Positions 60,757 through 60,996 are shown, counted from the first letter of the stretch. The stretch: DNA of 64,000 nucleotides from Patescibacteria group bacterium (GCA_022564195.1 JADFLW010000003.1:12747-76746); one strand, 5' to 3'. Notes: generated by a model from the sequence alone, not told the origin. Translations and numbers: made by a program.

Positions 60757-60996
60757 AAAGACTTTTCGCGTCATTGCGCGATTGGCCCAAAAATGATCCC
60801 GACAACGTCGGGGCCACATCAGGGCCAACCGCCCGACACGCAGACTCTCTAGGAGATCTCAAAAATCCAATAATTCCTCGCTCTATTCTTGTTGTGTTGT
60901 CAAAGTGCTATCCCGATGAGATGTCGGGATTTCATTGCCCGCATACGCAAACGCTTCTCGTTCACAACGCGGGCCGTAAATAACTCAGGTTGTCAA

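Follow-up and report, generated by a model that had tools for sequence, protein, structure and literature searches.

A structured leader RNA accompanies boxA-like sequences in a hammerhead-bearing gene island of a Patescibacteria group bacterium

The gene island and its relatives

The DNA analysed here, referred to as the window, is a stretch of 64,000 nucleotides from a Patescibacteria group bacterium (GCA_022564195.1 JADFLW010000003.1:12747-76746). From position 1 to about 51500 it consists of ordinary chromosome, which includes ileS and, behind a glmS ribozyme, glmS; a tRNA gene follows, and the rest of the window is taken up by an island of minus-strand genes (Table 1). Searches of the island proteins against Pfam, PHROGs and NCBIfam returned almost no matches. 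The 766-aa product of one gene, which contains a P-loop and has no Pfam match, gave an AF2 model (pLDDT 78) with a full-length Foldseek match in the PDB to TrwK/VirB4 of the R388 T4SS (E = 3e-14). Because of this fold match and the M23 peptidoglycan hydrolase gene that comes after the VirB4-like gene, the island was interpreted as a very divergent T4SS or conjugation-like cluster.

The VirB4-like family comprises 56 cluster representatives among 1.84 billion; alignment of the protein found no relative in GTDB genomes, and tblastn against phage and plasmid collections gave no match. Clusters of this kind have so far been found in metagenome assemblies and in one metagenome-assembled genome at NCBI (L060, GCA_964510435.1). 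Gene order is conserved in the contigs L002, L003, L013-L015, L017, L020, L021 and L023, which have intergenic leaders of 300-500 nt, and the succession of genes for proteins of ~150 aa, ~550 aa and ~120 aa, a leader, the VirB4-like gene and the M23 gene is kept in all related contigs.

A P-loop ATPase of ~480 aa is the product of the island's last large gene, and relatives of it were found in L021 (8379-9758) and L017 (15260-16801). A profile made from three sequences matched Rho in the PDB with E = 3e-12, versus 1e-4 for T3SS ATPases, while the AF2 single-sequence model had a pLDDT of 31. Judging by sequence, a Rho paralogue appears to be encoded by the same element that has boxA-like sequences in its leaders, a combination that is suggestive. 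The start codon chosen by the ORF finder for this gene (ATG 53699) falls within a hairpin loop (CAAUGA, in P4 of copy C, described below), and the true start is probably GUG at about 53643, after GGAAAGGAG.

The leaders of the island and its relatives follow hairpins located just past stop codons, some of which, in L020 and L023, are clear intrinsic terminators; many gene-end hairpins are without U tracts, and simple terminator scans were noisy. [quoted passage not shown] Long-stem terminators are reported to resist processive antitermination (PMC10325885), and the 14-bp stem of this terminator recalls that type.

Only weak type III hammerheads were detected by Rfam 15 on the minus strand of the island. 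The predicted cut of hammerhead A, which sits 5' of a boxA-like sequence and the structured RNA described below, lies between U61076 and G61075. Just 5' of hammerheads A and C there is a conserved hairpin, UCAAUCCC-(AGUAGC or AUUUGC)-GGGGUUG(G/A), with a G/U-rich tract (61136-61157 and 54123-54144, minus strand); hairpins with the AUUUGC-type loop are likewise present in L015 and L017.

Table 1. Features of the window and of related contigs. Positions are window coordinates unless a contig is named.
Feature	Position	Strand	Details
glmS ribozyme	32506-32716	+	55.8 bits; 5' of glmS gene
glmS gene	32824-34605		
tRNA gene	51497-51569	+	
Cluster-end terminator	52002-52032	-	14-bp stem and U tract
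Rho-like P-loop ATPase gene, ~480 aa	52200-53642	-	3' of cassette C
Copy C, divergent	53679-53792	-	P2 UUGGGAAC/GUUCCCAA; P3 enlarged by insert
Copy C, P4	about 53691-53706	-	CCAG-CAAUGA-CUGG
Copy C, boxA-like sequence	53802-53812	-	GCUCCUUGACA
Hammerhead C	53997-54063	-	RF00008, 37.3 bits, E = 4e-5
Copy B, P4	56587-56600	-	CGCG-CAACGA-CGCG
Copy B, main hairpin	56600-56652	-	P2 GUGGGCUC/GAGCCCAC; internal UAAUGUGGC/UUCAUUUUC; P3 CCCGAC-UCC-GUCGGG
Copy B, P1	56650-56664	-	GCCUG-CGUGU-CAGGC
Copy B, boxA-like sequence and CA-rich box	56706-56727	-	11-mer GCACUUUGACA at 56717-56727
Hammerhead B, type III	56783-56856	-	GUC, predicted cut after C56848; core and stems by sequence
M23 peptidoglycan hydrolase gene	56944-58407	-	
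VirB4-like ATPase gene, 766 aa	58417-60717	-	ATG 60717; 3' of copy A
Small hairpin	60733-60750	-	GGCC-AAGA-GGCC and GACUAC; between block A and Shine-Dalgarno of VirB4-like gene
Copy A, P4	60767-60780	-	CGCG-CAAUGA-CGCG; 5' strand overlaps 3' strand of P2a
Copy A, main hairpin (rod)	60778-60832	-	P2a, P2, internal pairs and P3; fold, covariance model, covariation
Copy A, P2a		-	GCGG/UCGC; part of rod
Copy A, P2	60822-60828 with 60782-60788	-	UUGGCCC with GGGCCAA
Copy A, internal segment	60813-60821	-	UGAUGUGGC; G.U-rich pairing with AUCAUUUUU, one U.U mismatch
Copy A, P3	60798-60812	-	CCCGAC-GUU-GUCGGG
Copy A, P1	60831-60845	-	GUCUG-CGUGU-CGGGC; overlaps P2a by 2 nt
Copy A, boxA-like sequence and CA-rich box	60886-60908	-	11-mer GCACUUUGACA at 60898-60908, then CACAACAAGAA at 60886-60896
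Hammerhead A, type III	60997-61086	-	RF00008, 20.5 bits, below gathering threshold; core CUGAUGAG...CGAAAC
Direct-repeat sites	L003 about 6640-6720; L017 about 4800-4870 and about 13850-13900; L020 about 420-480		

The structured RNA in the window

The original prediction described a conserved block of four helices shared by two cassettes, A and B. Reading of the sequence in RNA sense located all of its elements at 60767-60850 on the minus strand (copy A), and the same elements were found in copy B (block 56587-56670, elements 56587-56664, minus strand). The proposed long-range helix (P2) and inner hairpin (P3) are real, but together with the intervening AUGUGG they form one continuous hairpin, the rod, interrupted by a single Y.U mismatch; AUGUGG does lie where it was placed, enclosed by the long-range helix, and the segment is itself mostly paired. 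The base changes between the two copies were as described: two pairs of P2 are altered on both sides (C-G to U-A and U-A to G-C), and G.U pairs of the first hairpin (P1) become Watson-Crick pairs, G-C or A-U, through changes on one side only. The stems of P3 and P4 are identical. Covariance models (R1 and R2, see below) gave copy A 81.8 and 72.8 bits and copy B 72.5 and 62.2 bits, respectively, and shuffle tests of the MFE fold gave z = -5.2 for copy A and z = -5.8 for copy B. A 13-mer and an 18-mer common to both copies have no further occurrence in the window.

Cassette C, which had been thought to lack the RNA, contains a divergent copy that scored 35.5 bits with R1 and 31.8 bits with R2 (E about 2e-5) and whose MFE structure is the rod (z = -5.3). 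The contig L002, which represents the same element beyond the end of the window, holds at least one extra copy at 2917-3006, equivalent to about 67.7 kb on the window scale, and probably another, with a P3 insert of ~170 nt, at about 6450-6720 (~64.0-64.3 kb). Both lie 5' of the window boundary and have a hairpin and a boxA-like sequence ahead of them.

Homologues, covariation and strand

Homologues were first recognised by reading the leaders 5' of VirB4-like genes, in which the same RNA is built from different helix sequences. A covariance model of 8 copies (R1) yielded about 21 distinct sense-strand copies, and after a second model of 18 copies (R2) the number stood at 27 copies in 9 elements; the R2 scan of the 51.6 kb chromosomal part of the window returned no copies. 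Three elements outside the R2 training set (L060-L062) contained 6 matches, all on the sense strand. Five of these were directly 5' of a called gene and the sixth, in L061, was 148 nt from a VirB4-like gene, and a boxA-like sequence was present upstream in all six. The family total is 33 sense-strand copies in 12 related metagenomic elements. Three pattern scans of IMG/VR gave chance matches only (L001, L004-L012), and a pattern consisting of the CA box and the start of the rod had 35 matches and 0 covariance-model hits in GTDB genomes. The sole return of a JGI metagenome scan was a contig already known.

Compensatory changes across these homologues support the claim of a structured, truly covarying RNA on the minus strand. 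The homologues keep the core helices, and in the alignment of 18 sequences the hairpin was 92-94% paired (93.6% over its 20-pair core), with compensatory changes on both sides in 15 of the 20 core pairs. The observed values were reached in 0 of 500 shuffles, and a control in which the partners were slid by 1-3 columns gave pairing of only 34-46%. The RNAalifold consensus of the 18 sequences is a single rod of 24 pairs, in which eight internal pairs link P2 to P3 and P2 is extended by a 4-pair P2a (the 5' flank GGYGG with the strand immediately 3' of P2). The internal pairs join 5' YGAUGUGGY to 3' RUCAUUUY, with many G.U pairs and the single conserved Y.U mismatch. The rod, with ~24-28 bp, is the MFE structure in all 27 copies. 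In the alignment of the rod, the pairs U14-A68 and A34-U48 never vary, and there are fixed places at which G.U, U-A or G-C pairs are kept. Loops and inserts in P3 are free to vary, with sizes between 3 nt and more than 60 nt.

Rfam 15, which includes twister, twister-sister, pistol, hatchet, HDV, riboswitches and known leaders, had no match to the block, either at the gathering threshold or at E<=10, and likewise none to the homologous copies, in agreement with the original prediction of an RNA of unknown class. The RNA is a real, previously uncatalogued structured family, consisting of a long irregular hairpin and a small hairpin.

Scores of sense copies are about twice those of their antisense echoes (72.8 versus 31.9 bits for copy A), and the stem is rich in G.U pairs, which would be C.A mismatches on the other strand. 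Because the antisense scores are about half of the sense scores, the structure belongs to the transcript. A DNA palindrome acting on both strands was rejected, as the structure is confined to the mRNA-sense strand, and a single-strand DNA promoter was rejected because the structure is on the wrong strand.

Optional and competing helices

The first and last hairpins of the original prediction fared differently. P1 is present in A and B and was sought in the homologous leaders, where it is absent. The final hairpin, P4, was found in 17 of 27 copies as an optional element of 3-6 bp with many different stems and a CRANGA loop (variants are CGAAGA and, in one copy, GAAAAA), and it competes with the P2a extension of the rod. 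The 5' strand of P4 is the strand that forms P2a, which extends the main stem by 4-5 bp, is 79.5% paired, and shows double-sided changes in 4 of its 5 pairs; P4 covaries as well. Forcing P4 in the RNA folded alone cost 1.5-13.4 kcal/mol in 16 of the 17 P4-bearing copies (11.5 in copy A). As P2a and P4 are mutually exclusive and both covary, a switch is possible, and their competition may be a built-in one that is resolved by a bound factor.

Two further pairings were rejected. An outer helix, CGUGUC/GACGCG, occurs in the MFE structures of A and B; it is 52% paired across the homologues and shows no conservation. Pairing of the P4 loop (AAUGA) with UCAUU was dismissed on sequence comparison, as B and L003 change the loop while the strand is unchanged.

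Architecture of the leaders

The leaders are modular, and one stands before each gene block. From 5' to 3', a leader consists of a hammerhead or a promoter-like, AT-rich segment, in many cases a hairpin, then a boxA-like 11-mer, a CA-rich box, the rod, P4 (which begins 0-1 nt after the rod), a short hairpin, a Shine-Dalgarno sequence and the start codon. The boxA consensus is GYTCTTTAANA (PMC5725501), and the 11-mer of this family is GCWCWUURACA. In 107 kb of elements, the strict consensus, which is gamma-proteobacterial and may not be that of the host, has 7 sense-strand and 0 antisense-strand occurrences, with an estimated chance expectation of ~0.2; the loose form is found on the sense strand only. 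Several copies have the exact consensus GCUCUUUAACA, from which A and B of the window differ at 2 positions. A boxA-like 11-mer lies 17-72 nt 5' of 25 of the 27 rods, mostly at 32-43 nt, and in about one third of the copies, including A (60910-60930) and C, a stable hairpin is located at most 32 nt 5' of boxA; the others have a weak hairpin or none. The CA box was also considered as a sigma-70 -35 element and rejected, as it has no -10 at a suitable distance and the scan called no promoter-like site there.

In 24 of 27 copies, 0-49 nt separate the end of the rod model from the start codon. All copies with examined downstream sequence are 5' of a called gene or of a Shine-Dalgarno sequence and start codon, and none is in an rRNA operon leader or spacer. 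Each element has 4-7 copies of the RNA, before unrelated genes. In related leaders, P4 is mostly followed by a short hairpin, GGGNC-loop-GNCCC, often then by ACUA, and then by a strong Shine-Dalgarno sequence; these hairpins are often preceded by a conserved YCCGRU. On the minus strand of the island the motif GAGNCCNACUA was observed 5 times versus 0.2 expected, and a GGNC-loop-GNCC hairpin followed by NACUA(C/G), 5-15 nt 5' of a Shine-Dalgarno sequence, was seen at 60733-60750, 56553-56570, 53729-53750, 53657-53680 and 54694-54715.

Many leaders contain an inverted repeat, CUUGUUGUG ... CACAACAAG, that brackets the hammerhead or promoter-like unit. Around the hammerheads of the window it takes the form (U)UCUUGUUGUG ... 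CACAACAAGA(A) (about 61085-61098 with 60886-60898, and 56852-56861 with 56708-56717, minus strand), with the 3' arm directly after boxA. It was also seen in L003, L017, L020, L023 and L060, and some of these repeats enclose a TTGACT ... TATAAT-like segment instead. The repeat may act as DNA or form a long-range helix in the RNA. In leaders of the promoter type, 4-6 direct repeats, each ~10-11 nt long and similar to ACUAAAGAAC, precede an inverted TTTTTAGTTTTT; by their sequence, the direct repeats look like operator or iteron repeats for a regulator.

Possible functions

Long untranslated leaders are natural targets of Rho. We infer that the leader RNA most likely helps RNA polymerase or the mRNA through the long untranslated leaders. 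A more specific reading, which we put forward tentatively and with somewhat less than even confidence, is that boxA and the rod, as its structured partner, make up an antitermination signal similar to that of rRNA leaders or nut sites, which is resupplied after each ribozyme cut. Nascent boxA would recruit host NusB/S10, and boxA and the long hairpin would then assemble a termination-resistant, Rho-resistant elongation complex, in which the hairpin would be the counterpart of boxC in the rRNA leader helix or of the lambda nut and HK022 put stem-loops. The polymerase modified in this way could read through untranslated leaders of 300-500 nt and past the hairpins that end the preceding genes. 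Hammerhead cleavage would sever the RNA tether to the polymerase, and each promoter would begin a new RNA, so the signal would have to be given anew in every leader.

The linkage of a covarying sense-strand rod to boxA, repeated in the held-out elements L060-L062, argues for antitermination, as does the recurrence of the set after each hammerhead or promoter, which is expected if cleavage cuts the signal from the polymerase. The leaders come after gene-end hairpins, some of them clear intrinsic terminators, and there are a parallel in the rRNA leader and precedents in conjugation operons (conAn2 and canT, discussed below), which suit the VirB4-like setting. Furthermore, boxA-Nus complexes shield rRNA and CRISPR transcripts from Rho (PMC7665894). 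However, boxA was identified by its likeness to the gamma-proteobacterial consensus, and its spacing from the rod (17-72 nt) is looser than that of boxA from boxC (18-19 nt) or from lambda boxB. The G/U-rich stretch has only UGUGG in common with boxC and breaks down in the most distantly related copies, antitermination RNAs of known type number one or two per operon rather than 4-7 per element, and, with U tracts missing and scans noisy, the evidence for intrinsic terminators between cassettes, and hence for a need of antitermination, is mixed.

The proximity of the rod end to the start codon would suit a role in translation or stability equally well, and it is among the features expected of an operator or switch, a rather unlikely alternative in which a protein of the element or host would bind the conserved middle of the rod or the CRANGA hairpin and co-ordinate translation or decay of all gene blocks, with P2a and P4 as the two states. 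Conserved bases inside the helix, including the two invariant pairs, the several copies per element before unrelated genes, and the covariation of both P2a and P4 on one strand agree with such a model. It would nevertheless leave the tight linkage to boxA unexplained, the Shine-Dalgarno sequence and start codon are free in either state, P4 is missing in 10 of 27 copies, and the almost empty Pfam and PHROGs searches offered no candidate RNA-binding protein. Linkage to boxA and P4 would likewise be unaccounted for if the rod were an RNase III-type processing site or 5' stabiliser, that is, an irregular duplex that is cut or protective and complements hammerhead processing. The early mRNAs of phage T7 have intergenic RNase III sites, and the rod has about two helical turns with a central mismatch in all copies, is longer than the ~20 bp or more required of such substrates, tolerates free variation of loops and P3 inserts, and lies in intercistronic leaders of a transcript that bears hammerheads. 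Strong base-specific conservation within the helix is unexpected for such substrates, however, and the 5' end is already set by the hammerhead or promoter; this explanation is decidedly less probable than an operator.

The remaining candidates carry little weight. P3 and the U-rich 3' strand might act as an intrinsic terminator or attenuator that stops polymerase unless it was modified at boxA, which does lie upstream, and a terminator scan flagged P3 with AUCAUUUUUG in A and P3 with UUCAUUUUCG in B. Only these two were flagged, however; the tract starts with AUCA and elsewhere reads GCCAGUUCG, GGCACUCCU or GCCGAUUCG, interrupted and without conservation, several P3 stems are weak and A/U-rich, and the U-rich strand is paired with covariation inside a conserved outer helix that a terminator would not need, all of which makes termination very improbable. 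A new self-cleaving ribozyme or riboswitch aptamer might be suspected from the nearby hammerheads, the conserved structure in a 5' UTR and the alternative pairings, but we consider it scarcely credible: Rfam gave no match at E<=10, the sequences give no sign of self-cleavage, the RNA is an essentially continuous helix with no multi-helix junction or pseudoknot (the loop-strand pairing that was tried did not covary), and the genes that follow are structural genes of one element with no relation to each other.

A compact, strongly covarying RNA accompanies a boxA-like signal and returns after each ribozyme or promoter in a secretion or conjugation cluster whose proteins are almost all unannotated. 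If antitermination is its function, the RNA would reveal the means by which a gene set of 25-30 kb is insulated and co-ordinated in a mobile element, offer a natural setting for the joint study of ribozyme cleavage and Nus/Rho control, and provide genome annotation with a new RNA family. A broader proposal, of which we are rather doubtful, is that these elements form a new class of mobile T4SS element, whose gene set is run as ribozyme-cut transcripts, each fragment starting with a reloadable mimic of rRNA-leader antitermination (boxA and rod) that may work with or against the element's own Rho paralogue. This would represent a new class of cis-acting antitermination RNA and the first functional coupling of hammerhead processing with Nus/Rho control. 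Even with another function, the motif is a marker for a family of T4SS elements that is rare and otherwise difficult to recognise. We know of no clear biological rationale so far for gene-flanking bacterial hammerheads in mobile elements, and boxC-type rRNA leader helices are, to our knowledge, poorly understood.

Comparison with known systems

The RNA is outside all Rfam families and, by analogy, would work most like the boxA/boxC part of the rRNA leader or like a nut or put site, the defining features of which it lacks or shares in part. The P4 hairpin, small and with a purine-rich loop, presumably resembles lambda boxB, and like lambdoid nut sites the leaders combine boxA with stem-loop RNA in a mobile element. 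The boxB of nut follows boxA by a few nt and is a 5-bp hairpin whose pentaloop is GNRA-like, whereas here P4 is ~90-150 nt from boxA, after a 55-nt rod, and, unlike nut boxB, it is missing in 10 of 27 copies; no N-like protein was recognised among the island proteins in the Pfam and PHROGs searches.

HK022 put consists of two stem-loops about one nucleotide apart. Like put, the Bacillus EAR element, conAn2 and canT, the RNA is a structured one at the start of long mobile-element operons. The latter two are cis-acting antitermination RNAs at the start of conjugation operons, conAn2 in pLS20 (PMC8191782) and canT in Tn916 (PMC11658703). In contrast to the RNA described here, with which they have no sequence or Rfam similarity, all four of these RNAs are present once or twice per operon and have no boxA link, and conAn2 is much larger (260-600 bp).

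The antitermination leader of rRNA operons (rrnTAC) has the order boxB-boxA-boxC, with a second set 5' of the 23S gene (PMC10250234). The leaders of the island resemble it in their boxA-like 11-mer, in the stable hairpin that about one third of copies have a short way 5' of boxA, in the repetition of the signal within one transcription unit, and in a G/U-rich stretch (UGUGG core) that is kept through wobble pairs in the 5' strand of a long helix 3' of boxA. [quoted passage not shown] Moreover, the helix here is a local hairpin, unlike the pairing of the rRNA leader with a distant trailer, and it precedes protein-coding genes of a mobile secretion cluster, with longer and looser spacing, an extra CRANGA hairpin, and 4-7 copies per element interleaved with hammerheads.

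Genes of prophages and mobile elements can be flanked by clusters of type III hammerheads (Perreault et al., 2011, PMC3088659). As in those clusters, several type III hammerheads lie between gene blocks of the island and presumably cut polycistronic RNA. That study describes the ribozymes, and a conserved leader of boxA and hairpin after each ribozyme is not known to us from it. What seems to be new, as far as sequence comparison can tell, is a boxA-linked, cis-acting leader RNA in T4SS clusters that are punctuated by hammerheads.
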